A DNA stretch of 64,000 nt from contig JBDTFR010000054.1 of the NCBI GenBank assembly GCA_039937835.1, forward strand, positions 9,543 to 73,542. Reading direction: 5' to 3'. Of the stretch, positions 4,642 to 60,630 are shown piece by piece. Made by a program: the position numbers and the translations under genes. The first letter of the stretch is position 1. The number at the start of each line of letters is the position of its first letter. The DNA is from Bacteroidia bacterium (GTDB lineage: Bacteria > Bacteroidota > Bacteroidia > 2-12-FULL-35-15). The notes under the pieces are model-generated. The model saw only the letters and a program-made list of their open reading frames with translations. It did no database searches and was not told where the DNA came from.

Positions 4642-4715
4642 TGGTCTTGTAGGGATTCGAACCCCAAACCTTCTCATCCGTAGTGAGATGCTCTATCCAG
4701 TTGAGCTACAAAACC
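4642..4715 (-). tRNA. tRNA-Arg (anticodon ACG)
   Basis: Hand-folded cloverleaf on the reverse complement: acceptor GGTTTTG/CAAGACC, D-arm GCTC/GAGC, anticodon stem TCTCA/TGAGA with loop CTACGGA, T-arm TGGGG-TTCGAAT-CCCTA. CCA is not encoded. Confidence 0.85.
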
Positions 4716-8057: not shown

Positions 8058-8260
8058 TTATGATAAACTATTTAAAAAACAATTATTTTTTAAAATATTT
8101 ATCATTATTACGAAATATGTAGTTATAATAGTTACATAAAATAAGAATTTTATTGAAAATAAAAAGTACTTAATTAAATCAATTTAAAATTTTTAGCATT
8201 CTTTTTTAATTGATTTATAGATTTCTCTTACAGTATTTTTTTGAATATTAAATTAAAAAA

Positions 8261-8598
8261 CAGGTCTATAAGCCGGGTTCTGTCGAGTTCTATCATTTAT
8301 CTAGCTTTTTCATCACTGAAAAAATCATGCAGCCTACCCTCCGAATAGAGCGAGCAACTCTTATACTTCGGTTTATTTGGCCTTTCAACTCCCAAGGTTT
8401 ACCCAAAATAACTGTCACCAGCTACTTTCGTGAGCTCTTACCTCACATTTTCACCATCACCTGCATTTCTGCAAGGCTGTAATTTTCTGTGGCACTTGCT
8501 GTTTCCTACATTACTGCAAGAACCTTCCAGTTAGGAAGTGGAATGCTCTGTGTTGCCCGGACTTTCCTCTCTAAAACTTAGAGCGATAGAACGACCTG
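8261..8598 (-). ncRNA. rnpB: RNase P RNA, bacterial type A (rnpB)
   Basis: On the minus strand: 'GAGGAAAGUCCGGGC' (P4 5' strand, plus 8555..8569 rc) and 'ACAGAACCCGGCUUA' (P4 3' strand, plus 8267..8282 rc). The P1 termini CAGGUC/GACCUG pair. The island is GC-rich in AT-rich surroundings and is followed by a U-tract. Confidence 0.85.
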
Positions 8599-8636
8599 TA
8601 AAACAAAGTTAATTATTTATATTAAATAACAAGGTG

Positions 8637-12597: not shown

Positions 12598-13260
12598 TTA
12601 AGTAGCCTTGGTTTCGTTTTTATCGCTTTTGATTTTTCTCTTTATTAACATTGCTTTTGACTCCTCATTACGCAATAATCGTTCTATATTTTTTTGATGG
12701 GTAATTAATACCATAATAGCAATTAATAAAGAAAAAATGATTAACGAAGGTACAGTGGTTTTAAACACTAAAATTACAATAATAGGAAAAGTAATACCAG
12801 CAACTATTGAACTTAATGAAACGTAGTTGGAGACCAACAATACAAACAAAAATATACCTATTGAAAAAAGAGCTGCATAAAAATGCACTGCTAATATAAT
12901 ACCCAGCAAGGTTGCTATTCCTTTACCTCCTCTAAAAGAAGCAAAAATTGGGAATATATGTCCTAATAAAGCTGCAATACCTAATACTAATTGCAAATTA
13001 ATAAACTGGTTGGAATTGGGGATATAATTACTTAGATGAGCGATATTAACAGCACAGAACCCTTTTAAAATATCCATTAATAAAACGGGAATGCCTGCGC
13101 TTTTTCCTAATACTCTAAATGTATTAGTAGCGCCTGCATTGCCACTTCCATACTCCCTAACATCGGTTTTATAGAATCGTTTGCCTATCCATACAGATGA
13201 CGGTATGGAGCCTAATAAATAGGCTCCTAAAAGAAAGAGTATGTTAGTTATATTTATCAC
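12598..13260 (-). CDS. plsY: glycerol-3-phosphate acyltransferase PlsY
   Basis: 'YGSGNAGATN' signature and a 5-6 TM profile. Confidence 0.85.
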   Translation of the reverse strand: MINITNILFLLGAYLLGSIPSSVWIGKRFYKTDVREYGSGNAGATNTFRVLGKSAGIPVLLMDILKGFCAVNIAHLSNYIPNSNQFINLQLVLGIAALLGHIFPIFASFRGGKGIATLLGIILAVHFYAALFSIGIFLFVLLVSNYVSLSSIVAGITFPIIVILVFKTTVPSLIIFSLLIAIMVLITHQKNIERLLRNEESKAMLIKRKIKSDKNETKAT

Positions 13261-16200
13261 TACTCTTCAACAGCTTGTGATTTACGTAGGAACTGTGTTT
13301 TTTTACTTGGAGGACAAATATTATAATAATAATTAGGTTCGTTCTTATCCTTATCTCCAGCTTTTTCGCGCTTATCTGATTTTAATTCTTTAAGTATGGT
13401 ATTATATGCTTCGTTTGAAGAAACTGATAACATAGTACCACGTGTATAATTAAAATAATACCAGTTGTTCGCATCAATTTCTAAATAAATATTTAATATA
13501 TCCCCACCCCTTTTCTTAGATAATTCTATCTTTCCATCTACATATTTATTTATTTGTGTTTTGTCAATATTTCCGATACCAATTTTACCTATGGATGAAT
13601 AAGAACGTGTGTCTTTGTTCCATTTCATTTTTACATCCGTAAAAAAGAATGTTTTCCTTAACTCATCTGGCAGCTTTTTATATGAGCCGTATAAATTTAA
13701 TTGTGAAATTAATTTATCTGCTTGCTCCTTACCGAGAAGTTCACGCATTCCTTTTTCAAAAGTAGGTTTTGAGAAATCGGTTGGCTTAAGCTCTGCAGTA
13801 CTTGATATTTGTTCTGCCATTTTTTCAATTGCTTTATCCGCAAAAAAGAAATCAACAGACATTAACAATTCAAACTTAGCTGAATCAGTAACAAGGTTAT
13901 GAGTGGCATTTCCAACCGATTGAATTTTAAGTTGCCCTAAATCTCCTCCTAAATTTATTTTCCCTTCGCCATATACTTTACAATCAGTGGTACTTAAACT
14001 TAAATAATTACCTGGTAATGATTTTTCAATTAACTTTTCTTTGTTTGAAATACGATACTCTTTGCTCGCTTTATCATAAAATAAAAAACCATCAGCTGGT
14101 AATACTTCTGCATCATTGTTTGTAGATTGTCTAGGGGAAAGAAATGCTGTGTAAAAATGGGTAGAATCAGTAGTAACCATTAATGAAGCTGCAATTGCCT
14201 TCCCTGCTTGATCTACAGGATTTTTACTAATAGGAATATATATTTCAGCTGGATTTACCTCTGCATCAAACTTTAGCCATGAATTAGGTATTTTACATTT
14301 ATGAGTAATTCGAATTGCCCCATCATACACCAAATATTGGTTATTTGCTTTTAACTTAACCTCTCCTTTATATTCGAAATAAGGGCTTAAACGAAATTTT
14401 GAAGTATCAGAAATAGTCGTAACAGCATAAGTTTGATAAGTAGTATCTACACTTATGTTACTAAAATAAAATGTTTGTTTTGTTTTAAGCTCGTCTTCAT
14501 AATCATAAAACCCAGAACCTGTATAATGTTTACGGGCTGTTATATTTACTGTACAATTATATAAATTATGATATTTAGTTACGGCATTTGCTACAATTTT
14601 AGCATTTGTTAATGGCCGCATTAAAGCATCTTTTTCAATTGTTACATCACCTTTATCTGGAAATATACGAGCATCGGCAACATTTATATATTTAACTTCT
14701 TTGGCAGAAATTATATAGTTTTTTAAATCATATTTTGCTACCGGTGATTTAAATCTTAAAGAATCTTGCTTGGGATGGACAGAAATAAATTCAGGCCCTT
14801 CTAAATCTAAGTCATTATTTGCAACCTTTTCACCTTTTTTATCCGACCCTAATTCAATTTCGCCTTTTTCCATAAACCATTTAAATTTATCCATATAACA
14901 GATATATTGGTTAACAGGAAATTTAACAATGGAGCCTTTACCATTGGATTTAAATTCTCCAACGCGTTCTTTAAAATCGATATGTGCTTTTACATTATCC
15001 GTAGCAAAGGCGAGCGTTGCAATATCTGTAGCTTTTAAATTAAAGTTAGCAGTATCTGCATCAAATGTGCTCGATTTAAATTTAATCCATTTCGAATCTA
15101 ACCTTGCATTCGAAAAATGCGATGCCCCTTCACCATAAAGTTGTTTAGGCGTTAAAGATAAACGTCCATCAAATTGTGCCTTAGTATCATATTGTGCAAA
15201 TCTTTTATCTTTTGCATTCCATGCACTTAAGTTATCTTTTAACGGCATCCAATGAATTTTAACACTATCTCCGTGTGTTTGCGGAAATTCTGGAGGAGTT
15301 TTTTGTTCTTTTATATCAAAAGACTGTGCAAGGGCATTTGTTGAATCAGGAAAAAATATAAAATCGTTTGATTTTATTTCCGAGGTAATATATTTTAAGG
15401 TACCATCTCCTCTAAAACCTTTATTACTTAACTTAATTGCATTTGTAAAACTACCTTTATCCCCATACATGGCCATACCTCCTGGAGGTGTTTTACTAAT
15501 AAAACCGAGAGAATAATCTTCTTGTATAGTAAGTGATTCTTTAAATGTTGGAAATATTCCTGCAGATACGATTGAACCTTTAAAATTTAAACCTTCATTA
15601 GAAGTGTTATCCAAACTATCAATTGTAAATGGTTCGATGTGAAAGTAAAAGTTATCCTTCGGGTACTTACCATTTTGTATTGATTTTTTATTGTAATAAG
15701 CATAAGAATCTTTTAAACTATTAAAAATTGGATAACTAGGAAAGGGCTTACGACCCGATTTATTTGCAGGATTATCAATCTCTAAATTACCATTTATTTT
15801 TTCTATAACTGTTTTAACTTTCACTAGTGGATAGTTCCCATAAGGATCTGCTTCACGAGACTTTGCCATCATTCGTAAAGAATCAACATTCTTTAAATCG
15901 ATGTTAAATTTATCGTAATTAAATGCAAATTCCTTCCCAAAAAAATCAAATCTTCCAGCGTGTACCACTCCTTCAAAAGTAAAATCTCGGTTTCTTTTTA
16001 ATATAAGTTTTTGTTCATTAGGGTAAACAACCACATTTTGAGAATCACTCATGGCAACTTGTTTTACTCCAAAAATGGTCATATCGTAATTAAGTAAATT
16101 GATGCTCGCATTATTTCCACCTCTTATTACTGAGGGAAACTGTATAACATCATAATCAACATGGCCAGCACGAGCTGCTATGTATGTAATTAATTTATCT

Positions 16201-17732
16201 TTAACCTGCACTTCATCATTTTCTACATCATAAGAAATAAAACCCAATGCAGATAATCTAATAAGATCTGGAGCCATATCTTTTAAAGCAAACTTCGCAT
16301 ATTTTGCATAATCAGCGCCCGAAAAAATTCGCTTATCTCCATTTTTTTTTGCAAAATCACGAATACGAATTAAAGGATTCATTTGATCAATACCTTGTAC
16401 ACGATCATATCTTTCTGTACGAAAATAATTAGATGATTCAAAAAGAGCGTCCTCTTGTGAGTTGCCTGCTAACATTTTTAAATCAATTTTAGGCTCATCT
16501 ATTTTCCAAAGAAGTTCCTCAAAATACATGTCAACATCATGAAAAGTATTTAAATAGGGTGACTTTGAAATACCATCATTAGTGCGAATAAGTGTTAACG
16601 ATCTATCTCCTATCATAAATTTCATATTCACACTTGGGTGTGTTATCGAATCCTTATCAAAATAAAATTTTATATTGGCTGTTTCAGCTGTTAATTTTTC
16701 TTTTGTTATACCTATTGTTTTTGAACCTATAATTAAAAAGGGCTTGCTATCTTTATTAAATATTAATCTAGCATCCTCCTGTGCACTTCCTGAGCCAATA
16801 AATTTTGCTCCGCGTTGCGTAAATCCTCCATCATAATCTACATTTTTAGCAATGTTGGGTATTTTCATTCGTTTGCTATAGGACTCAAAACGAGGATAAG
16901 ATATAAAATTTCCTTTTTCAGAAATAACTTTTTCAGTCAACACACCTAGAAGCGGCTTTTCAAAATAATTTTTGTTATAAAAGGTGACCGAATCAGCCGT
17001 AAAGCCGCTCGTTTTAAGTGTTATTTGATATTTTTTTAATTCTGCCCATACTGCATTTTTTTCAATACCTGCTCTAGACCAATCTACTTTTCCTCCTTCA
17101 CCAATGAATATACCTTTATCAGGATAAAAGACTCCACTTGTATTATATACAATACCGCTATCATTTTGATTATTATAACAACGCAAATCTAATTTTGAAA
17201 AAATTACTTTTGGTACACTGTCATACTCAAAAATGTATTTATCATTGTTTGAACTATAACTTACTACTGCCGATTTATAAAAAGTGTTCGTAGCAAATAA
17301 ATTTTGACTCATTTCTAAATAATCAGAATAATGTCTTATTCCTTTTCCATTTAATATTTTTTCAACACATTCTTGCCAGGTTAAAAAATTGTCCTCATCA
17401 TGTCTGCTATTAATAAAATTCTTTACTGAAGATAAATAATCAGAGTATTCAGGCAGAATACGTAATTTCTTCTTCACCATTAAATTAAAGGCTTTGTAAG
17501 TAGCTTTTTTTAGATTGGTGGTGTATTTTGGTGAATTCCAAGCTATGGTAAATTCTTCCATAAAAACTTTCAAATCTTTCTTATCCATGTTTGTTACTTC
17601 AAACATTGTTTTTACTTCTTCTAAAAACTTTATAGGATCTTCAGTAAACTGTTTAATAGGATTTATTTGTGCAATTAAAGGGTGTGCAATTGAAAACACT
17701 GTAAAAATGAGGATGATTTGTAATTTTTTCAT
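13260..17732 (-). CDS. very large (1490 aa) secreted, beta-rich protein; possibly a TamB/AsmA-like envelope assembly protein
   Basis: Signal peptide, Tyr/Asn/Gly-rich with no repeats. Its stop overlaps the plsY start, and its start lies 6 bp from the prmA stop, so it is embedded in the tpiA-prmA-X-plsY operon. Confidence 0.45.
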   Translation of the reverse strand: MKKLQIILIFTVFSIAHPLIAQINPIKQFTEDPIKFLEEVKTMFEVTNMDKKDLKVFMEEFTIAWNSPKYTTNLKKATYKAFNLMVKKKLRILPEYSDYLSSVKNFINSRHDEDNFLTWQECVEKILNGKGIRHYSDYLEMSQNLFATNTFYKSAVVSYSSNNDKYIFEYDSVPKVIFSKLDLRCYNNQNDSGIVYNTSGVFYPDKGIFIGEGGKVDWSRAGIEKNAVWAELKKYQITLKTSGFTADSVTFYNKNYFEKPLLGVLTEKVISEKGNFISYPRFESYSKRMKIPNIAKNVDYDGGFTQRGAKFIGSGSAQEDARLIFNKDSKPFLIIGSKTIGITKEKLTAETANIKFYFDKDSITHPSVNMKFMIGDRSLTLIRTNDGISKSPYLNTFHDVDMYFEELLWKIDEPKIDLKMLAGNSQEDALFESSNYFRTERYDRVQGIDQMNPLIRIRDFAKKNGDKRIFSGADYAKYAKFALKDMAPDLIRLSALGFISYDVENDEVQVKDKLITYIAARAGHVDYDVIQFPSVIRGGNNASINLLNYDMTIFGVKQVAMSDSQNVVVYPNEQKLILKRNRDFTFEGVVHAGRFDFFGKEFAFNYDKFNIDLKNVDSLRMMAKSREADPYGNYPLVKVKTVIEKINGNLEIDNPANKSGRKPFPSYPIFNSLKDSYAYYNKKSIQNGKYPKDNFYFHIEPFTIDSLDNTSNEGLNFKGSIVSAGIFPTFKESLTIQEDYSLGFISKTPPGGMAMYGDKGSFTNAIKLSNKGFRGDGTLKYITSEIKSNDFIFFPDSTNALAQSFDIKEQKTPPEFPQTHGDSVKIHWMPLKDNLSAWNAKDKRFAQYDTKAQFDGRLSLTPKQLYGEGASHFSNARLDSKWIKFKSSTFDADTANFNLKATDIATLAFATDNVKAHIDFKERVGEFKSNGKGSIVKFPVNQYICYMDKFKWFMEKGEIELGSDKKGEKVANNDLDLEGPEFISVHPKQDSLRFKSPVAKYDLKNYIISAKEVKYINVADARIFPDKGDVTIEKDALMRPLTNAKIVANAVTKYHNLYNCTVNITARKHYTGSGFYDYEDELKTKQTFYFSNISVDTTYQTYAVTTISDTSKFRLSPYFEYKGEVKLKANNQYLVYDGAIRITHKCKIPNSWLKFDAEVNPAEIYIPISKNPVDQAGKAIAASLMVTTDSTHFYTAFLSPRQSTNNDAEVLPADGFLFYDKASKEYRISNKEKLIEKSLPGNYLSLSTTDCKVYGEGKINLGGDLGQLKIQSVGNATHNLVTDSAKFELLMSVDFFFADKAIEKMAEQISSTAELKPTDFSKPTFEKGMRELLGKEQADKLISQLNLYGSYKKLPDELRKTFFFTDVKMKWNKDTRSYSSIGKIGIGNIDKTQINKYVDGKIELSKKRGGDILNIYLEIDANNWYYFNYTRGTMLSVSSNEAYNTILKELKSDKREKAGDKDKNEPNYYYNICPPSKKTQFLRKSQAVEE

Positions 17733-31668: not shown

Positions 31669-31743
31669 GGTGGCCAATGGGGCTCGAACCCACGACCCTC
31701 GGTACCACAAACCGATATTCTAACCAACTGAACTATGGCCACC
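31669..31743 (-). tRNA. tRNA-His (anticodon GTG)
   Basis: The reverse complement folds as G-1 + GTGGCCA acceptor, D-arm AGTTC/GAAT, anticodon stem TCGGT/ACCGA with loop TTGTGGT, T-arm GTGGG-TTCGAGC-CCCAT. The extra 5' G is typical of tRNA-His. Confidence 0.85.
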
Positions 31744-38650: not shown

Positions 38651-38782
38651 CGTAGCTGATTTTAATTTTCAATAAAATTTTATTTCTATAAAAAAATAGT
38701 TCACCCATTTTTTATTAAAACAAATCAGGAGAGAACATTTTCATAACCTCTGATAGTTTGCTACCCACCATACTTCAAAACA

Positions 38783-38808
38783 AGAGCGCCTGCAATGCAG
38801 GCGCTCTT
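38783..38808. terminator. bidirectional terminator hairpin
   Basis: aagagcgcctgca-atg-caggcgctctt is a GC-rich 11-bp stem between convergent genes, with A/T runs on both sides. Confidence 0.55.
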
Positions 38809-38832: not shown

Positions 38833-39696
38833 CTAATTGTTGTTTACAATTACTTTTCTGTTCACTATGTCAGTATCGGTAATTATTTGTACGGTATAAA
38901 ATCCAGCAATAGAGATTTTAAACGAATATGATTTTTGACCTTCAACAACATATTTATCAATTAATTGACCTGTTGTATTAAAGACATTAATAGACTTTAG
39001 GTGATTTTCCGAATTAATTGTTAACTCACCTTGAGAAGGATTTGGGAAAACCCTAAGTTCTTTTGTATTTCCGTGCTCTGCAATACCGGTTGCTATAACT
39101 GGAGTAGTCAATATCAAAGACTCCCCCCAACTACCCGTTCCAGTGCGGGTAACAACTGTTTTACCACCAGTATATTTGCAAGTCGTCATTCCATTACTTT
39201 GCCAAGGATCCATAAATGTTAATCCACTGCTTGTAGTATTATAGCCACAGCCAACTACCACGTGTCCTCCACCTTGGCTCCAAAAAATACCGATAACGAA
39301 TGGTCTTTTTGCTTCTAATTCAGTTTTAATTTGTGCAAGAGGAACAGGAGCATCCGTCGGAATATTCGCAATCGATCCAAAATGGGTTAACATACCACTT
39401 ATTCCATAATTGTATTTTATTTCGTTGGGGTTATTGCATTTTCCCGATGGGCTGGAGCAACAACTAGTCGTTCCAAACGTTGCAGTTTTAAGTGTTCGGG
39501 CGTATTCTGCAATATCACATTGCTTTTGACTTTTATAGCCATAATAATTTAAAATACATTTTGTGTTGGCTACCCAACACCAGTTAGTTTGTTCTTGTCT
39601 TGTTACACTAACATCTGCTGTATATGTTTGTGCTGATGCAACATTACTTGCTAATAAGAAGCAAAATGCTATTGCTATATTTTTTATATGTTTCAT
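38833..39696 (-). CDS. papain-like cysteine peptidase domain protein with T9SS C-terminal sorting domain
   Basis: 'QTNWCWVANT' resembles the papain/C39-like catalytic Cys context, and 'GGGHVVVGCGYN' the catalytic His context. C-terminal 'VFPNPSQGELTIN...YTVQI' is a Por/T9SS CTD. Confidence 0.5.
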   Translation of the reverse strand: MKHIKNIAIAFCFLLASNVASAQTYTADVSVTRQEQTNWCWVANTKCILNYYGYKSQKQCDIAEYARTLKTATFGTTSCCSSPSGKCNNPNEIKYNYGISGMLTHFGSIANIPTDAPVPLAQIKTELEAKRPFVIGIFWSQGGGHVVVGCGYNTTSSGLTFMDPWQSNGMTTCKYTGGKTVVTRTGTGSWGESLILTTPVIATGIAEHGNTKELRVFPNPSQGELTINSENHLKSINVFNTTGQLIDKYVVEGQKSYSFKISIAGFYTVQIITDTDIVNRKVIVNNN

Positions 39697-39751: not shown

Positions 39752-40384
39752 TTAGTTCACTTTTAAAGCTTGAACCACTTCGGCCAATTTATAGGTTGAT
39801 TTTGTTGCTCTTGTTCCAGAAGCATTTTGTAACCCTGTTTTTGCTGACTCCAATGGAATCAAATCTGCATTTTCAATTCCTGCATTGATATCATTATATG
39901 AAACAAAACTTGCAGCTTGTGTTAACATATTCACCATGATCCATTCTTTTTCGGAAGGTAAAGGGTTTTGTATTTCTACCAATTGCAACTCTTTCGCTAA
40001 TTCAGCAGCTCCAACTGTTTGAATTTCATATTTACCATTTTCAAAAGATACAGTCAACACAGCTCTATATTGGTTATTTACAGAAACAATTACATTGTAT
40101 AAATTGGTTTCAAATACATTTCCTTCTTTGCTAACATTTGTAATTCTATAAATGCTGGCAGGAACTGCTTTGGTAAATTCAGAACGGTCATTAAAACCAT
40201 GTTCTTTTTCCAAAGTAGTAGGTATAATTTCGAGAAAAGAACTCAATTCTTCTTTAACTGACGTTGTAATGGCTTGATTCACTTGAGAAACGGTGGGTTG
40301 TTTTCCATTCTCACCTTCCTTTGCCATAGCCAAAAAGGAAAGTCCGAAAAGTAGGGGAGCAATAATAAATAATTTTTTTTTCAT
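39752..40384 (-). CDS. hypothetical secreted protein (210 aa)
   Basis: Signal peptide and no CTD. Lies between two T9SS hydrolase genes. Confidence 0.45.
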   Translation of the reverse strand: MKKKLFIIAPLLFGLSFLAMAKEGENGKQPTVSQVNQAITTSVKEELSSFLEIIPTTLEKEHGFNDRSEFTKAVPASIYRITNVSKEGNVFETNLYNVIVSVNNQYRAVLTVSFENGKYEIQTVGAAELAKELQLVEIQNPLPSEKEWIMVNMLTQAASFVSYNDINAGIENADLIPLESAKTGLQNASGTRATKSTYKLAEVVQALKVN

Positions 40385-40609: not shown

Positions 40610-41755
40610 TTACTCTATTATAATTTTTTTGCAGGTTACATTTTTGTAATTGTCAGTTGCATTTAAAAAGTATATTCCTTTAGCTTCTTTACTCAAATCT
40701 ATTGTTGTTTGTTGGTTGCAGAGTTCTGTTTTATAAATGAGTTCACCAAAAATATTATGAATTTTTATTTCTATTTTGGTCGTGCTATTTTGTTTTAATA
40801 TAAAATTACCATTTGTAGGGTTGGGGTAGACACTTAACCCGATTATTGAACTATTTTCTGATACGGAAGCAATAACGCCACAATTTACGTTTGTAAGAAA
40901 TTTTGATGCTGTTACGTGCTGATTCATAGAATCATTTTTCACAATTTTGCAATAGCAACTATCGTCATTCAAAAATAAATTCATCCAAGCAAAGGCAACA
41001 TTTCCTAAATCGCCTTTCCCAAAACTTGGCGACAAACCTGTGCTATGGTCGCCTTTAGCAATTTCAAATAGCACTTTTTGTGTTGTAGCAGGAGTGAAAT
41101 CATAGTGTAAATTCGCATGCTTTGCAGGTGGTGCAACATTATCAAGTTGTGCGCTAAAAATTAAAATAGGTGAAGAATGATTCAAATTTGCTGCAATTAA
41201 TTTTGAATTGTCCAGCCATGGAGCAATTGCAAAAACAGCTTTTACTCTTTTGTCTAAAACAGATGCTAATTGAGCACCGCCGCCTCCCATTGACCAACCT
41301 CCAACAGCAACATTATTTGTGTCTAAATTATTATGTAGCGGAGAAGCAATTCTTTTATTTTCTAGTTTCAAGGTTACCATTGCATCTAATAATGCTTTTG
41401 CTCTTAATTCTGGCTGGTCACTTGTATTATTCGTTCCAATAGCCATAGCAACAAATCCATGTGAGGCAAAAAACCTGCCCCAGCTAGCTACCGATGTTTG
41501 AGCTGCAAGATAACCTGGTACTAAAACGATACTTTTATAGTTCCCTGAGCCTTTGACAGGGTAATACAATGTTGCACCTTTGTAGTCGGGCCCATTTCGC
41601 ATTCCGTTAGATTCTAATACTGAATCAATAGAGAAAGTAACAAAATTTGAGATTGCTGCAACGGTTACTTTAGAACATTGGCTTGATGCAGTTTTAAAAG
41701 CAATTGCAAAAAAAATAAAAAGAATTGATTTCGTTTTCATTTTTAGGTTTTTCAT
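40610..41755 (-). CDS. PETase/cutinase-like alpha/beta hydrolase (polyesterase-like) with T9SS C-terminal sorting domain
   Basis: Colinear with IsPETase: 'VLVPGYLAAQTSVASWGRFFASHGFVAMAIGTNNTSDQP', 'GGWSMGGGG' (Ser nucleophile), 'APWLD', 'LIFSAQLDNVAP' (Asp), 'IAKGDHS' (His), 'AWMNLFLNDD'. C-terminal 'VYPNPTNGNFIL...GIYFL' is a T9SS CTD. Confidence 0.8.
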   Translation of the reverse strand: MKNLKMKTKSILFIFFAIAFKTASSQCSKVTVAAISNFVTFSIDSVLESNGMRNGPDYKGATLYYPVKGSGNYKSIVLVPGYLAAQTSVASWGRFFASHGFVAMAIGTNNTSDQPELRAKALLDAMVTLKLENKRIASPLHNNLDTNNVAVGGWSMGGGGAQLASVLDKRVKAVFAIAPWLDNSKLIAANLNHSSPILIFSAQLDNVAPPAKHANLHYDFTPATTQKVLFEIAKGDHSTGLSPSFGKGDLGNVAFAWMNLFLNDDSCYCKIVKNDSMNQHVTASKFLTNVNCGVIASVSENSSIIGLSVYPNPTNGNFILKQNSTTKIEIKIHNIFGELIYKTELCNQQTTIDLSKEAKGIYFLNATDNYKNVTCKKIIIE

Positions 41756-42377
41756 TTTGTTATTAAAAGTTTATTATTTGAGCTTTTTATTAATTACTTA
41801 ATCTGTTCAATTTTCAGTATTTTTAATTTTGTTAGCACTTTTTCTAAGCAGATGCATAACAATTGCATATGGCACGAATGACACTACCAAGCAGTGCGCC
41901 TTCAGTTTGCTCTTATCCAAATTTACAATTTTTTTTAAAACTTTCATTATAAAAGCCAATTTAGAAATTTGTCAGCCATTATACCAGAATATCATACGAA
42001 TAATCGTAACTACTTACTTTTGACATCCTCTTTTGCCCTTACGAGGCTTCATCATTGGTTCACTTGCGTTCAGCTCTTTGTATTCTTACCTACAGAAATC
42101 GTTGTTTCCGTTTTTCTTTATCGCCAACACAAAACAGTTTCTTATTCTTGCAGTATAAAATGGTGTAGTACCTCTTCTGAAAGTCATTATTGAAAGGCCA
42201 ATCTCATCTGTTCTAAAACTTTAGCAATCTCAAGATTGCTGTTCAATTTTACTCGCGATTAAGCTAAAAAATTGCGGGATTAAATGTGCAAAACGGCGCT
42301 AAGAGATAAACTAAATTAAATTTAATGACCTTTCCGCAATTTAGAGAAGCCTGCCGTTGAAAAAATAAAATTGAGCT

Positions 42378-44333: not shown

Positions 44334-45129
44334 TTATTTAGTTTCTGAATATTCCAACTTAAAGTATTCTCTTGGAGTTCCTTTGAACCCTTGAGATTTC
44401 ACAAATAAGTTTATGGTAAAGGTAGAAGGGGATAAATTAGCAACTAAATTTTGCCCACCAAAATCAAATCCATTTCCATTTGATATTATTTCAAGGCTTC
44501 TTAAATAGTCAAGTTCTATGTCAATTTGTACAATTTCTTTTGTATTCAATATTTCAGATAGTTCATCGTGTGTTAATTGCATATCTTCTGCTAAAATTAA
44601 ACCGTGTTTATCTATTTTTTTCTCACAGTTTATGCATATATAATTTATGATTTTAACTTGATTAGTTGTCAGTAATTTTAATGTATTGGTGAAAAGCAAA
44701 TTACTGTCATCTCCTTCTTTTTCATTGCAAGATGAAGCCAGTAAACCGGCCCACATTGACTGTATATTATCGTCGTCCGTCCACGAAGCGTTTTCAATAA
44801 TCTCCTGGACAAGTTTTGGATGTGCTGTTAATGTTAATTTTTGCTCTTGAAAATCTAAATTTCCCTTCTAATTTATTAATTACATTAATTATGTTATTGA
44901 GTCGCCAATATCTAACTTTATCTCTAAACATTAAACCTAACTCTTCTGCTGCGGGAAGGCAAATCCTACTTAAAACTGCTTCGGCAGCACCGAACCCTTT
45001 TTCCACTGCAATTTTTATTGTTTCGCCATAAGGAGCTATTCCTAATAGGTCTGTCGATTTTAAGGTTGTTTCGTCTTTCATAAATTGGCTATAACAGGGG
45101 GCTAAACGCACTGGTACGTTTAGCCCCAT
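44334..45129 (-). pseudogene. Abi-alpha (DUF4393)-like gene split by a frameshift in an A-run
   Basis: Two adjacent same-strand ORFs in different frames ('...LPAAEELGLMFRDKVRYWRL...' then '...WTDDDNIQSMWAGLLASS...'). The switch occurs at 'gcaaaaattaac' (~44818). Confidence 0.4.
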
Positions 45130-47209: not shown

Positions 47210-47971
47210 TTATTTATTCGATACAATCATTCTTTTAGTAATGGTACGATCATTATTTTTTAAAGAATAAACATATATACCAGGAGCAAATGTATTTGCT
47301 TCTAATGTAATAGTATTAATACCTGTGGTTGATTTAATAACATTTGAATACTCTACTTTACCTAGCATATTAAATACTTTAAATTCAACCGTTGAATTAT
47401 TTATTGAAGAAAAATTAATGATTGATTTTTCGTTAAACGGGTTAGGGCTGTTTTGATCTACATCAAATTTAGCAAGATCTAGATCTTTAATGCCATTAGG
47501 ATCTGCTACTATACTTTTGTAGTTATTGTTAGGATAGGAATAATTATTAACCGGAATTGAACCAACTTTTCCAGATAACGAAAGTTTTATAAGAATTCTT
47601 GTATTCCATGCCTTGGTAGGTATTCCAGAAATTAAAAGACAAGCTGTTGTTCCGCCTAAAAATTTGCAATTTGCAGGCACACACTTATAGGTTAAGCCCG
47701 GAGCTAAATTTTCAATTCCTACTACTTTAACAGTATCTATAATGCCGCCCGGTAAACCAAATTCATCACTTGTTGTTGGTATTTTAATACTTAACGTAGC
47801 ACTATAAATTTCACCTACTTTACCAATTGGAAGACCAACGGTACTATCAGGACAAATACCAAATGTTTTATTAGCTGGCACGCAAGAAACATCAGGAATA
47901 CATTGTGCTACTGCTTGGGTAGCTATTGATCCAGATGCAATTAATAAGATAGAGAGTAATTTTTTTATCAT
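47210..47971 (-). CDS. secreted protein with T9SS C-terminal sorting domain
   Basis: Signal peptide. C-terminal 'EFKVFNMLGKVEY...GIYVYSLKNNDRTITKRMIV' matches the Por CTD. Confidence 0.6.
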   Translation of the reverse strand: MIKKLLSILLIASGSIATQAVAQCIPDVSCVPANKTFGICPDSTVGLPIGKVGEIYSATLSIKIPTTSDEFGLPGGIIDTVKVVGIENLAPGLTYKCVPANCKFLGGTTACLLISGIPTKAWNTRILIKLSLSGKVGSIPVNNYSYPNNNYKSIVADPNGIKDLDLAKFDVDQNSPNPFNEKSIINFSSINNSTVEFKVFNMLGKVEYSNVIKSTTGINTITLEANTFAPGIYVYSLKNNDRTITKRMIVSNK

Positions 47972-57117: not shown

Positions 57118-58713
57118 TTATTCTACTAAAATTTGAATCCATACATTCTTTATTCCGGACTGTCTATATTCTTCTGCCTTTTTTAAAGCCTCTTCTTTGC
57201 CCACAATCCTGTCGGTATATACATAATTAAATTTTTTCTTGTTATAATATACCCAATTGGCTTTAAACCCTTTTGCATTAAAGCGTTGGGTTTCTTCAAT
57301 AGCAAAATCTTGATAAATAAAAGTACCCACTATGATGTAAAACCCTTTTTGTGGTTCATGATTTTTATCATCTGTAAAATCTTTTGTTTTATTTGTTATC
57401 AGCCAAATACCTTTCTCCATTACTTTATTTTCATTTCCATCTATCGCTTCTGCATTTTTATTATTTTCAGTTCGCTGTATAGGGGGTTTTGCATTGAGCC
57501 TATCCATAAGGATTTTAATTTTTTCCTCATTTTCTTTTATTCTATTTTGAAGTATTTCAATCTTTGATTCATAGTCTTTATTCTCCAGTACTTTATTTTC
57601 ATTCCCAGTTAATACTTGTGTATTTTTATTATTGTCTGCTGGCTGTACCTTGTTTTGTAAATCTATTTTATCAGCAAGCATTTTAATTTTTGCATCATTT
57701 TCTTTTAATTGCTTTTGAAGTGAATCAATCTTTAATTCGTACTCTTTATTCTCCAGTACTTTATTTTCTTGTATAACTGCTGGGGCAGCATTCACTTCTT
57801 CTTTAATTACTTCAGGCTTATTTTTTCTAAATTTAAAACTGAGCATAATTTCTTGGCTAACGCCAGCGTAATTTGCTATTTTCCCTATCATAAAATCGTA
57901 TGAATAACCAACATATAATTGTTTTGTTATACAAATGCCTGCATTAACCGCAACAGCATAATCATTTTTATAGGTACCTCCTAGCCATAATTTATCTTTC
58001 CATTCAAGGTTTACATTTGCATCAAATTCAAAAGGAGTATTTGGTAAGTAATTAACAAATACTTGTGGAGTAACCGTTAAACCTTTATCAGCAAGAATAT
58101 TAAATTTATAATTAATAACCCCCATATAATGGCGTGCCTGAGTGTAACGTGCAAGACTATATGTTTCGAAATACTTCGTTTTATTTTCTAATAAATGAGG
58201 TATCGATGCTCCTAATACAAATTCCTTCCATTTAAACATGATACCTGCATTACCATCAAATGCAGTCTTATGGGCATCATCCGTTACCAATGAAGGGTCA
58301 AAACCATTTTCTAATATTGCTTTAGAAAAATTAATACGATGATCTAAAACACCTAAAGCAAGGCCGAATGATAAATGTATATCTTCCGTAAATGTTAAAC
58401 GATAGGAATATGAGATATCACCACCCATTGTATTGCTCAAACCTTTTTTATCACTCAACAATTTTAATCCTAATCCCATTCTCTTATCATTTAAGTTTCC
58501 ATCTAGTGTAAATACATTTAGTGAAGGTGAATTTTTAAAATTAGCCCATTGATCTTTGCTAATAATCATTGCTTCGGTATTTTCACCTACACCTGCAAAC
58601 GCAGGATTATAAATCATTGGTTTATAAAAATAATGATTAGGTAATCCTATTTGCTGAGCATTTACAATTAAAGTAATAATAATAAAAGATAAAACGAGTC
58701 CTATTTTTTTCAT
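57118..58713 (-). CDS. T9SS PorP/SprF-family membrane protein with coiled-coil repeats and a C-terminal SPOR-like domain
   Basis: N-terminal 'PMIYNPAFAG' PorP/SprF hallmark. Duplicated ~55-aa 'GNENKVLENK(E/D)YE(L/S)KI..LQ..(L/I)KEN(D/E)(A/E)KIK' units. C-terminal 'YIIVGTF...NYVYTDRIVGKEEALKKAEEYRQSG' fits the SPOR pattern. Confidence 0.7.
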   Translation of the reverse strand: MKKIGLVLSFIIITLIVNAQQIGLPNHYFYKPMIYNPAFAGVGENTEAMIISKDQWANFKNSPSLNVFTLDGNLNDKRMGLGLKLLSDKKGLSNTMGGDISYSYRLTFTEDIHLSFGLALGVLDHRINFSKAILENGFDPSLVTDDAHKTAFDGNAGIMFKWKEFVLGASIPHLLENKTKYFETYSLARYTQARHYMGVINYKFNILADKGLTVTPQVFVNYLPNTPFEFDANVNLEWKDKLWLGGTYKNDYAVAVNAGICITKQLYVGYSYDFMIGKIANYAGVSQEIMLSFKFRKNKPEVIKEEVNAAPAVIQENKVLENKEYELKIDSLQKQLKENDAKIKMLADKIDLQNKVQPADNNKNTQVLTGNENKVLENKDYESKIEILQNRIKENEEKIKILMDRLNAKPPIQRTENNKNAEAIDGNENKVMEKGIWLITNKTKDFTDDKNHEPQKGFYIIVGTFIYQDFAIEETQRFNAKGFKANWVYYNKKKFNYVYTDRIVGKEEALKKAEEYRQSGIKNVWIQILVE

Positions 58714-58725
58714 AATACTATTGAT

Positions 58726-60630
58726 TTATTTCCCTAAAATATCTACTGTCCCTTTAAATGTCTGATTAGTGTTATTAAAACGTATTACATAAAAGTAAGT
58801 TCCATCGGGTAACTCTTTACCATTATAGGTGCCTCTCCAATCATTCGTATATTCTTTTTTTGTAAATACCACTCTACCATCTATATTATAAACAGTTACC
58901 TCGTTACCTGGAAAATTCTCTATATTTTCTATATACCATGTATCATTAACACCATCGTTATTGGGCGTAAAGAGGTTCGTAATTTTTCCATTAAAAAAGG
59001 ATTTGATTACCGTTACTGTTACCGTATCTGAATTAATACAATTATTTAAGTCAGTAATAAATAAGGTATAAGTAGTTGTGCTTTGGGGAGTAGCAATAGG
59101 ATTTAATACAGCTGTGTTATTGAGTCCAGTAGGAGGCGTCCAAAGAGGAGTACCTAAACCACTCCCATTCAATTGTAGAGATTCTCCAAAATTAATGAAT
59201 TTGGCAATGCCTGCATCAACTGCATTCATAGGCAATACGGTAATCGTTCTTGCCAAAGTAGTATCTATATTACAATTACCACTTTGCACAATTGCTTTAA
59301 ATAAAGTAGTTTGAGTTAAGTTTTTAGTATACAACCAGGTTGTTTTATTTAAAACAGGCGTCCAAGTAGCTCCATTATTGGTAGATGAAGACCAAGCAAG
59401 CACACTCCCAATATTACCAACTACTTTTGAAGTATCTTCATTTAATCCATAACAAATTGTTTTATTGCCGTTAATACTACCCGCTACTGTTTGCGGAGAA
59501 ACATACACTTTTTGAATAGTTGAAGTATCGATAGAACAAGCTCCATTTTTTACTACGGCTCTATACCATTTAGTTGATAGCATGTTGGTGTATGATTCTG
59601 TAGAATCAGTATTTGTTATCTTTAACCAACTCACACCATTATCAATAGAAGAACTCCAAGAAATAATATCTCCCTTAAAACCGTTTAAAGTTAATGCACC
59701 AGTAGCGGGCACTCCACAATATGTGGCACCACCACTAAGCGTACCCACCACTGTAGGCAAACTTACCTTTATTATTGCTACAGCGGTAGTGTCTGTTAAA
59801 CAGCTACCACTCTTAACGATTGCTCGATACCAAATTGTTTGTGTGAGGTTTGAGTAAGATAAAAATTTATTAGTACTCGCAATTGCTTGCCATGTATTAC
59901 CACTATTTATAGATGATTCCCAACCTTGTACTTCTCCAACGCTACCAACTAAATTAAGTTTTCCGCTATTTGCAGTGATGCAAACATTCGTAGCACCAGT
60001 AACCGTTCCAGCTACCGTAACAGAGTCGATTGAAAAAGAAACAGGCGTTGAATTTTCTATATTACATGTTGGTGTATTTTGAACGGCGACACGATAAATT
60101 ACACTTTGCGTAATGTTTGTATAATTTAAATTGGTAGATGTATTTACAATCTTATTCCATGTGAGACCACCATTGATTGAGTTTTCCCAATATACCGGAT
60201 TCCCGGTATTACCTGTTAAAGTAAGTGAGCCAGCACCACTGTTACCACAAAACAAACCACCTCCACTAATTACACCAGATACACTTGGCTGATAAACGGT
60301 AATACAAAACTGTGTTGAAGTATCAGCTGGAAAAGGTGTTTTTTGAACCACTGCTCTATAACAAGTAGTTTGCGCTAAATTAAAATAAGCAATATTAGTA
60401 GTTGTAATAGCAATATTATTCCATACAGCACCGCCATTTGTAGAAGATTGCCAATATAATATATTTCCATCTTTCCCAACAAGTTCTAAAACACCATCAT
60501 TTGTTGCTGAACAATAAGAGGACTGACCTTTAAAAATATTAATTGTTCCGCCTATAGATTGAGCATTCAGTAGTTGTATAGAGAATAAAAATAAAAAAAC
60601 TAAAATAGATCTAATAAAAGAGGTTTTCAT
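58726..60630 (-). CDS. T9SS type-B C-terminal domain (gliding motility-associated CTD) repeat protein
   Basis: C-terminal 'FTPNNDGVNDTWYIENI...GTYFYVI' matches the type-B CTD pattern. About six ~80-aa Ig-like internal repeats. Encoded immediately upstream of the PorP/SprF gene. Confidence 0.75.
   Translation of the reverse strand: MKTSFIRSILVFLFLFSIQLLNAQSIGGTINIFKGQSSYCSATNDGVLELVGKDGNILYWQSSTNGGAVWNNIAITTTNIAYFNLAQTTCYRAVVQKTPFPADTSTQFCITVYQPSVSGVISGGGLFCGNSGAGSLTLTGNTGNPVYWENSINGGLTWNKIVNTSTNLNYTNITQSVIYRVAVQNTPTCNIENSTPVSFSIDSVTVAGTVTGATNVCITANSGKLNLVGSVGEVQGWESSINSGNTWQAIASTNKFLSYSNLTQTIWYRAIVKSGSCLTDTTAVAIIKVSLPTVVGTLSGGATYCGVPATGALTLNGFKGDIISWSSSIDNGVSWLKITNTDSTESYTNMLSTKWYRAVVKNGACSIDTSTIQKVYVSPQTVAGSINGNKTICYGLNEDTSKVVGNIGSVLAWSSSTNNGATWTPVLNKTTWLYTKNLTQTTLFKAIVQSGNCNIDTTLARTITVLPMNAVDAGIAKFINFGESLQLNGSGLGTPLWTPPTGLNNTAVLNPIATPQSTTTYTLFITDLNNCINSDTVTVTVIKSFFNGKITNLFTPNNDGVNDTWYIENIENFPGNEVTVYNIDGRVVFTKKEYTNDWRGTYNGKELPDGTYFYVIRFNNTNQTFKGTVDILGK

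Follow-up and report, generated by a model that had tools for sequence, protein, structure and literature searches.

The closest described counterparts of the gene analysed here are the esterases PET27, PET28 and PET29 from Aequorivita species and PET30 from Kaistella jeonii. These four proteins, as well as PET38, all carry the TIGR04183 sorting domain (also called PorC) of type IX secretion systems (T9SS) (PMC8767016), and according to that laboratory's publication of 2026 such a tail is typical of the known flavobacterial PETases (PMC13188925). PET27 to PET30 all hydrolyse para-nitrophenyl (pNP) C6 and C10 esters, tributyrin, Impranil, polycaprolactone (PCL) and bis(hydroxyethyl) terephthalate (BHET), while poly(ethylene terephthalate) (PET) foil is attacked only by PET27 and PET30 (PMC8767016). 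In this work, we analysed a 64,000-nucleotide stretch of the Bacteroidia bacterium assembly GCA_039937835.1 (contig JBDTFR010000054.1, positions 9,543 to 73,542; hereafter, the window), which contains a gene for a 381-residue protein of this kind, with its ATG at position 41755 on the minus strand. Judged from its sequence, the encoded protein, referred to below as the esterase, is very probably a T9SS-secreted serine esterase that hydrolyses polyesters and other esters, and belongs to the Bacteroidota branch that contains PET27 to PET30. The coordinates of all features discussed are collected in Table 1.

The family match is far too strong to be due to chance. The Pfam PETase profile (PF12740) matches residues 57-279 along profile positions 38-250 of 263, with a score of 165.8 bits against a cut-off of 28 (E 1.6e-48). 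The best match in the Protein Data Bank is 7PZJ_A (E 1.7e-90, 307 bits, residues 14-367, including the tail), with the next match at 151 bits; 7PZJ is the structure of PET30 (WP_039353427) (PMC8767016). Over 344 residues, tail included, the esterase is 42% identical to PET30. Its catalytic domain is 48-49% identical to those of PET27, PET28, PET29 and PET30, and 33% identical to that of IsPETase, the type IIb enzyme of Ideonella sakaiensis. For these comparisons, the genes of PET27, PET28 and PET29 were taken from Aequorivita sp. CIP111184, A. viscosa and A. vladivostokensis, respectively, and the recovered lengths (364, 365 and 365 residues) equal the published values (Table 1 of PMC8767016). 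The IsPETase reference sequence was confirmed to be identical to 6QGC_A. A preliminary description of the locus had called the protein an IsPETase-like polyesterase and a candidate member of the PET27 to PET30 class, colinear with IsPETase across the whole catalytic domain. The profile and database matches above agree with a PETase-family alpha/beta serine hydrolase of the same family as PET27 to PET30, and BLASTP aligns the two proteins colinearly over 235 residues at 34% identity (E 4e-31).

The AlphaFold2 model, computed from an alignment with 89 homologues, has a mean predicted local distance difference test score (pLDDT) of 87.3 and comprises an alpha/beta core, a disordered linker at residues 294-303 and a seven-stranded C-terminal domain. 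Residues 41-260 are modelled with pLDDT values of 91-98. Using Foldseek, the model superimposes on 7PZJ with a template modelling (TM) score of 0.88 and a root-mean-square deviation (rmsd) of 1.9 Å at 47% identity, and on many IsPETase structures with a TM score of about 0.90 and an rmsd of 2.0 Å. The top structural neighbours are all polyester hydrolases and cutinases. Against the NCBIfam equivalog model for the BHET hydrolase BdeA (NF051441), the esterase scores 123.8 bits, below the cut-off of 520, and is by this measure a homologue of BdeA but no equivalog.

To place individual residues, we used an alignment in which PET30 is numbered in agreement with the published Phe80, Tyr178, Gly195, Val232 and Cys285 (PMC8767016). 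All motifs quoted in the preliminary description are found in the translation in the expected order and spacing, namely: VPGYLAAQTSVASWGRFFASHGF with Tyr82; GWSMGGGG; APW with Trp180; LDNVAPP with Asp205; GDHS with His237 and Ser238; and AWMNLFLNDD. The triad Ser155/Asp205/His237 aligns with Ser160/Asp206/His237 of IsPETase and with residues 153/198/230 of PET30, and all three residues are invariant among 120 homologues, as is Met156. The nucleophile elbow, Trp154-Ser155-Met156, corresponds to Trp159-Ser160-Met161 of IsPETase and Trp152-Ser153-Met154 of PET30. Subsite I is formed by Tyr82-Met156-Trp180, as compared to Tyr87-Met161-Trp185 in IsPETase, and subsite II contains Trp154 and Ser238, the counterparts of IsPETase Trp159 and Ser238. 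Around this shared core, the pair beside the subsite tryptophan is His213/His217 instead of Ser214/Ile218, position 241 is Leu rather than Asn, and the equivalent of Arg280 is Ala. The five-residue set (Tyr, Trp, Met, Trp and Ser; YWMWS) recurs in 53 of the 199 other sampled family members, 17 of which bear a tail, and is therefore not rare in the family.

According to the classification of Joo et al. (2018), type II PET hydrolases are defined by an extra disulfide, Cys203-Cys239, and type IIb enzymes by Trp159, Ser238 and an extended beta8-alpha6 loop that exceeds the type I length by three residues (PMC5785972). The elbow tryptophan had led to the esterase being likened to type IIb, and this comparison holds in part. 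Trp154 and Ser238 are present, and so is the extended loop, which runs for 19 residues from the catalytic His to the AW of alpha6 exactly as in IsPETase and is aligned there by BLASTP without gaps; its three-residue difference from type I is taken from PMC5785972. The active-site disulfide, on the other hand, is absent, since Ala202 and Thr239 occupy the positions of Cys203 and Cys239, and none of the 120 homologues has a Cys at either equivalent position. As the defining disulfide is missing, the esterase falls outside type II in the strict sense. The same hybrid pattern, i.e. type IIb residues and loop without the type II disulfide, is reported for PET27 and PET30.

The likeness to PET27 to PET30 extends over the whole polypeptide. 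They share with the esterase a predicted Sec signal ending in Gln-Cys, the PETase fold, the triad, the GWSMGGGG elbow, the equivalents of Trp159 and Ser238, a beta8-alpha6 loop of IsPETase length, the cysteines of a C-terminal disulfide in the absence of the active-site one, and, as a tail of roughly 70-100 residues, the type A (PorC) domain of the T9SS. By architecture, and by full-length homology that is closer than to other PETase groups, the sequence places the esterase in the PET27 to PET30 class. It differs from all four at position 82, which is Tyr here and Phe in them, and from PET30 at position 180, where Trp replaces the Tyr of that enzyme. In addition, the loop that follows Trp180 is 15 residues long, compared to 11 in IsPETase and 10 in PET27 and PET30; alignments with PET30 show the latter difference as a gap of 5 residues. 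Within the family, loops of 15 residues are found in 123 of 202 members and loops of 10 residues in 68, including PET27 and PET30. With respect to IsPETase, the fold, triad, Tyr-Met-Trp subsite, Trp159, Ser238, extended loop and the cysteines of the C-terminal disulfide are common to both, whereas the esterase has, besides the substitutions listed above, a longer loop after the subsite tryptophan, an extra N-terminal Cys and a T9SS tail; IsPETase carries only an N-terminal secretion signal.

Four cysteines are conserved in the family. Cys269 and Cys292 correspond to Cys262 and Cys285, which form a disulfide in the PET30 crystal (PMC8767016). All 156 tail-bearing members among the 202 sampled have both residues, and the pair is lost in most of the tail-less ones. 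Cys27 and Cys267 are nearly invariant across the family: 164 sequences have all four cysteines, 33 have Cys27 and Cys267 alone, and 4 show another pattern. Because those 33 tail-less members, which lack the other pair, keep only these two of the four, Cys27 probably forms a second disulfide with Cys267 that tethers the mature N-terminus. The crystal of PET30 lacks residues 1-27 (PMC10885555), so that a bond of this type could not have been seen in it. It should be noted that the N-terminal segment with Cys27 has low confidence in the AlphaFold2 model.

The N-terminus of the esterase has the features of a Sec signal peptide, with predicted cleavage before Gln26. Gln26-Cys27 is invariant in the 89 aligned homologues, and 199 of 202 family members have Gln26. 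In Bacteroidetes, signal peptidase I exposes a Gln that is then cyclised to pyroglutamate, which is known as the Q-rule (PMC5837995, PMC10653852), and the conservation of Gln26-Cys27 fits this rule. The cleavage predicted for PET30 is at the equivalent site, between HA and QC (PMC8767016, Table 3). At the other end of the protein, the Por_Secre_tail profile (PF18962) matches residues 309-380 over its entire length (positions 1-75 of 75, E 3.5e-15) and the type A model TIGR04183 scores 47.1 bits against a cut-off of 23, while the NCBIfam scan yielded no hit with TIGR04131, the type B model. The proposed fusion of the catalytic domain to a Por/T9SS C-terminal sorting domain is thus borne out. 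The tail aligns with that of PET30, and in the model it forms seven beta strands (within residues 307-380) and reaches the last residue; type A domains are described as seven-stranded immunoglobulin-like sandwiches (PMC11285876). That the tail would be a distinct secretion tag does not hold, given that PET27 to PET30 and PET38 carry the same domain and that it is found in 156 of the 202 sampled family members.

The window also encodes a PorP/SprF family membrane protein and three other proteins with a sorting domain, and therefore the host probably uses a T9SS; the core components (SprA/Sov, PorV, PorU and GldKLMN) lie outside the 64 kb. The PorP/SprF gene is directly downstream of the gene with the type B tail (57118..60630); type B cargo proteins are usually paired in this way with a PorP-like partner of their own.

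Relatives of the esterase are abundant. A word-limited protein search returned 476 proteins at E <= 1e-20, most of them with the same two Pfam domains, and at least 485 genome loci with relatives came up when one genome per species was scanned. These are distributed over Aequorivita, Patiriisocius, Psychroflexus, Dokdonia, Polaribacter, Chryseobacterium, Crocinitomicaceae and Chitinophagales, with tail-less forms in Roseivirga; the best of the 80 top loci in the GTDB scan, a set without the genome of the window itself, is from a Chitinophagales metagenome-assembled genome (58%). A neighbour-joining tree based on the catalytic domain, which was built without bootstrap values and is indicative only, places the esterase in a group of about 14 tips with uncharacterised sequences from metagenomes (62-76% identity for the closest), and PET27 to PET30 in a separate group of 46 tips. 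This would make the esterase, from an uncultured Bacteroidia lineage, a member of a sister subclade outside the PET27 to PET30 clade. For the host itself, the ParC relatives with at least 81% identity all come from metagenome-assembled genomes of Bacteroidia or Bacteroidetes.

Two further groups are instructive for comparison. The tail-less Roseivirga proteins, which NCBI names "poly(ethylene terephthalate) hydrolase family protein", share 52-55% identity in the catalytic domain, the YWMWS set and the Gln-Cys N-terminus, but they end at about residue 287 and have neither the T9SS tail nor the Cys269/Cys292 pair. PET93 and PET94 from Maribacter and Arenibacter, described in 2026 as dienelactone hydrolases, are likewise esterases secreted by Bacteroidota; their triad is Ser-Asp-His, their binding residues are Tyr-Met-Trp, and they are slowly active on PET (PMC13188925). 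According to their authors, they represent a different scaffold that is devoid of a PorC tail and falls outside the cluster of PET27 and PET30 (PMC13188925).

From these data, a path from synthesis to activity can be proposed. The preprotein would be exported by the Sec system, after which signal peptidase I would remove the leader and Gln26 would probably be cyclised. The catalytic domain would then fold in the periplasm and form the disulfide Cys269-Cys292, by homology to PET30, and probably also Cys27-Cys267. In T9SS export, the tail of a cargo protein is recognised, the protein passes through the translocon, the tail is removed, and the cargo is released or attached to the surface. By analogy, the 73-residue type A domain would be recognised by the T9SS and would direct the esterase over the outer membrane, where the tail would normally be removed and the enzyme would be released or stay attached to the cell surface. 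In the extracellular space, Ser155, His237 and Asp205 would hydrolyse ester bonds, with the oxyanion hole provided by the backbone NH of Tyr82 and that of Met156, and the aromatic clamp of Tyr82, Trp180 and Trp154 would line an open cleft at the surface, of a shape that suits polymeric or medium-chain esters. Based on its characterised relatives, the esterase is expected to act on pNP-C6 and -C10 esters, BHET, PCL and polyester-polyurethane. It may also hydrolyse amorphous PET slowly, although this cannot be predicted.

Several observations weigh against this interpretation. PET28 and PET29, which have the same architecture, hydrolyse BHET and PCL but not PET (PMC8767016), and PET activity therefore cannot be inferred from sequence. 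In PET30, the exchanges F80Y and Y178W, which introduce the very residues found in the esterase, abolished activity on both BHET and PET (PMC8767016), so that the Tyr and Trp residues do not predict activity. Loss of the Cys203-Cys239 disulfide lowers the melting temperature of IsPETase by 13 degrees C and strongly reduces its activity (PMC5785972). Furthermore, in every characterised relative compared, the loop corresponding to that after Trp180 is 4-5 residues shorter.

These points bear most directly on the idea that the esterase is a true PET hydrolase at least as active as PET27, in which the full IsPETase subsite set would have been restored in a cold-adapted Bacteroidota scaffold. All five subsite positions and the 19-residue beta8-alpha6 loop are as in IsPETase, and two of the four nearest characterised relatives cleave PET foil. 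The Ala at the position of Arg280 adds to this, as the exchange R280A improves IsPETase. The two histidines that replace Ser214 and Ile218 speak against it, because this pair is thought to allow the wobbling of Trp185 in IsPETase, and so do the missing active-site disulfide, the inactive PET30 mutants and the lack of PET activity in PET28 and PET29. Even the active relatives turn over PET slowly, with PET27 releasing 174 nmol of terephthalic acid in 120 h and PET30 38-fold less (PMC8767016). On balance, we consider such an enzyme possible but would not expect it, and we are similarly doubtful that the esterase hydrolyses PET to a measurable extent at all. Somewhat better founded is the notion of a general esterase for natural substrates, such as polyesters of the cutin or suberin type, esters of waxes or lipids, or acetylated polysaccharides, with PET activity that is nil or incidental; we judge this to be probable by a small measure. 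The characterised relatives are described as promiscuous esterases (PMC8767016, PMC13188925), the family occurs in many Bacteroidota genera, at the 485 or more loci mentioned above, and is much older than PET, and the gene is surrounded by housekeeping genes, with no neighbours related to plastics or aromatic catabolism. Weak secondary Pfam matches to AXE1 and DLH point in the same direction. The neighbourhood, however, contains no sugar-utilisation locus, SusC/SusD pair or lipid-related gene that would indicate a specific natural substrate, and a role in natural ester turnover is compatible with, rather than opposed to, a secreted polyester- and ester-hydrolysing enzyme.

A dienelactone hydrolase, which is the label given to many of the homologues by the Joint Genome Institute, can be dismissed as highly improbable. 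The Pfam DLH profile (PF01738) does match, at 24.3 bits just over its cut-off of 21, but the PETase profile scores 165.8 bits, the nucleophile is Ser155 in a GWSMG elbow instead of the Cys of classical dienelactone hydrolases, and the structural neighbours are all polyester hydrolases and cutinases. The homologues that bear this label carry the PETase subsite residues, contrary to what would be expected if the best hits were dienelactone hydrolases devoid of them.

In public records, the esterase corresponds to MEO6902895.1 and MEO9218318.1 of NCBI, which have a generic name and are identical to it from Met6 on, the start chosen there giving a protein of 376 residues. Translation from Met1 is likelier, because the two closest relatives (P0002 and P0003; 76% and 74% identity) both begin with MKNL(K/N)IK and have Ile, not Met, at position 6. 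The 381-residue form is also the one called on the Logan contig SRR26386579_2958 from the same organism. Upstream of the ATG, consensus matches define a candidate promoter region, with a sigma-70-like CTGACA-18-TATAAT at 41975..41946 and a Bacteroidetes-type -7 motif, TAAATTTG, at 41925..41918. In the promoter scan, sigma-70-like sites are no more frequent in this region than in shuffled sequence (15 vs. 16.3).

The esterase gene is the first of three tandem genes on the minus strand, followed by those of a putatively secreted 210-residue protein and a C39-like peptidase; the esterase and the peptidase have a sorting domain. A perfect GC-rich hairpin downstream is probably a bidirectional terminator that closes this unit, where it should be noted that the terminator scan reports consensus matches only. 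The 210-residue protein might be a partner or inhibitor of the peptidase. The block of T9SS-exported hydrolases suggested previously is overstated and comes down to two cargo genes, those of the esterase and the tail-bearing peptidase, as the rest of the region consists of housekeeping genes (for a carboxyl transferase, a P-type ATPase, glycosyltransferases, an aspartate carbamoyltransferase and tRNase Z-like proteins) apart from another sorting-domain protein 5.5 kb away. When eight neighbouring proteins were searched by tblastn in the best 80 of the at least 485 related loci, no synteny was found, the only hit being one weak tail-to-tail match in A. viscosa; the three-gene arrangement recurs only on the Logan contig of the same species. 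For these 80 loci, a conserved operon of T9SS hydrolases is thereby rejected. Horizontal acquisition of the region has no support either, its GC content being 0.32 compared to 0.28-0.35 in the window, with no notable flanking repeats.

The 673-bp spacer between a 273-residue open reading frame (ORF) and the esterase gene holds a match to the Rfam family group-II-D1D4-2. No domain V/VI match, reverse-transcriptase ORF or second copy was found in the window or the related loci, and the match could stem from a remnant of an intron or be a false positive at the borderline. Further upstream, the segment 43251..45129 has the appearance of a decayed defence gene region: a 1.08-kb stretch without any ORF of at least 46 residues is followed by the adjacent short ORFs 44334..44756 and 44794..45129, the former of which matches the middle of Abi_alpha (abortive infection). 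Elsewhere in the window, a 1490-residue ORF at 13260..17732 (minus strand), between plsY-like and prmA genes, has no match in Pfam (E <= 1e-5) or NCBIfam (E <= 0.01), a bacterial RNase P class A RNA is found at 8253..8602 (minus strand; 245.6 bits), and tRNAs are located at 4642..4715 and 31669..31742.

Table 1. Features of the esterase gene and its surroundings, numbered by position in the 64,000-nucleotide window (aa, amino acids).
Feature	Position	Strand	Basis
Complete ORF, ATG to stop, 381 aa: PETase-family esterase with T9SS type A C-terminal domain	40610..41755	-	ORF listing, Pfam
Stop codon of the esterase ORF	40610..40612	-	
T9SS type A C-terminal sorting domain, residues 309-381; PNP, GIYF and C-terminal KKIIIE motifs	40613..40831	-	PF18962, TIGR04183
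Flexible linker, residues 294-308	40832..40876	-	pLDDT <50 at 294-303
Catalytic alpha/beta-hydrolase domain, residues 26-293	40877..41680	-	PF12740, AlphaFold2, Foldseek
Cys267-Tyr-Cys269 through Cys292	40880..40957	-	PET30 correspondence, co-occurrence
Cys267	40955..40957	-	Family alignment, 202 sequences
His237-Ser238-Thr239: catalytic His, type IIb-like Ser238, Thr for IsPETase Cys239	41039..41047	-	Alignment
Catalytic Asp205 (IsPETase Asp206, PET30 Asp198)	41141..41143	-	Alignment
Ala202, at the position of IsPETase Cys203	41150..41152	-	Alignment
Loop after Trp180, residues 181-195 (LDNSKLIAANLNHSS), 15 residues	41171..41215	-	Loop-length census
Trp180 (IsPETase Trp185); Tyr178 in PET30	41216..41218	-	Family alignment
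Trp154-Ser155-Met156 in GWSMGGGG: nucleophile Ser155, oxyanion/subsite Met156, subsite II Trp154	41288..41296	-	Alignment
Tyr82 (IsPETase Tyr87; oxyanion hole and subsite I); Phe in PET27-30	41510..41512	-	Family alignment
Cys27	41675..41677	-	Family alignment, 202 sequences
Predicted Sec signal peptide, residues 1-25 (MKNLKMKTKSILFIFFAIAFKTASS)	41681..41755	-	Basic n-region, hydrophobic core, small-residue c-region
Candidate promoter region, 170-220 nt upstream of the esterase ATG	41918..41975	-	Consensus matches only
Rfam group-II-D1D4-2 match (group II intron domain 1-4)	42088..42205	-	39 bits vs. gathering 36, E 9.5e-6, 3-kb scan
Perfect 12-bp GC-rich palindromic hairpin (AAGAGCGCCTGC AAT GCAGGCGCTCTT) between convergent genes	38782..38808		
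Papain-like cysteine peptidase (Peptidase_C39_2, C70/AvrRpt2-like) fused to T9SS type A tail	38833..39696	-	
210-aa ORF, signal-like N-terminus, no Pfam/NCBIfam match; 55 bp upstream of the C39-like peptidase gene	39752..40384	-	
253-aa protein, type A tail at residues 176-250 the only recognisable part; N-terminal 175 residues without family match	47210..47971	-	
PorP/SprF family T9SS membrane protein, 235 bits vs. cut-off 90.55	57118..58713	-	Profile match
634-aa protein with type B (CHU_C/TIGR04131) sorting domain	58726..60630	-	Profile match

Taken together, the esterase is an additional uncharacterised member of a large, known group of Bacteroidota proteins. Since its family and domain layout are the same as those of PET27 and PET30, it represents no new kind of enzyme or secretion arrangement; a PETase domain followed by a T9SS tail is the standard Bacteroidota architecture and is abundant in public data. 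The esterase thus neither changes the picture of how such enzymes are secreted nor reveals a new enzyme class. If expressed and active, it would be one more polyesterase of Bacteroidota from cold environments. A more far-reaching reading, which we consider unlikely, is that the esterase stands for an uncharacterised subclade of T9SS-exported esterases in which the full IsPETase subsite set is joined with the longer loop and a Cys27-Cys267 disulfide, two clade-specific features seen in no solved structure. Such a disulfide, if formed, would fasten the N-terminus, with its pyroglutamyl residue, to the C-terminal helix, and should loop and disulfide confer more stability or low-temperature PET turnover than in PET27 and PET30, the subclade would be a useful new scaffold for a cold-active PETase. 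If active, the esterase would be the first tested enzyme of the long-loop, Tyr-Met-Trp branch of the PET27/PET30 family, and testing this branch could reveal why PET is attacked by half of the tested members and not by the other half.

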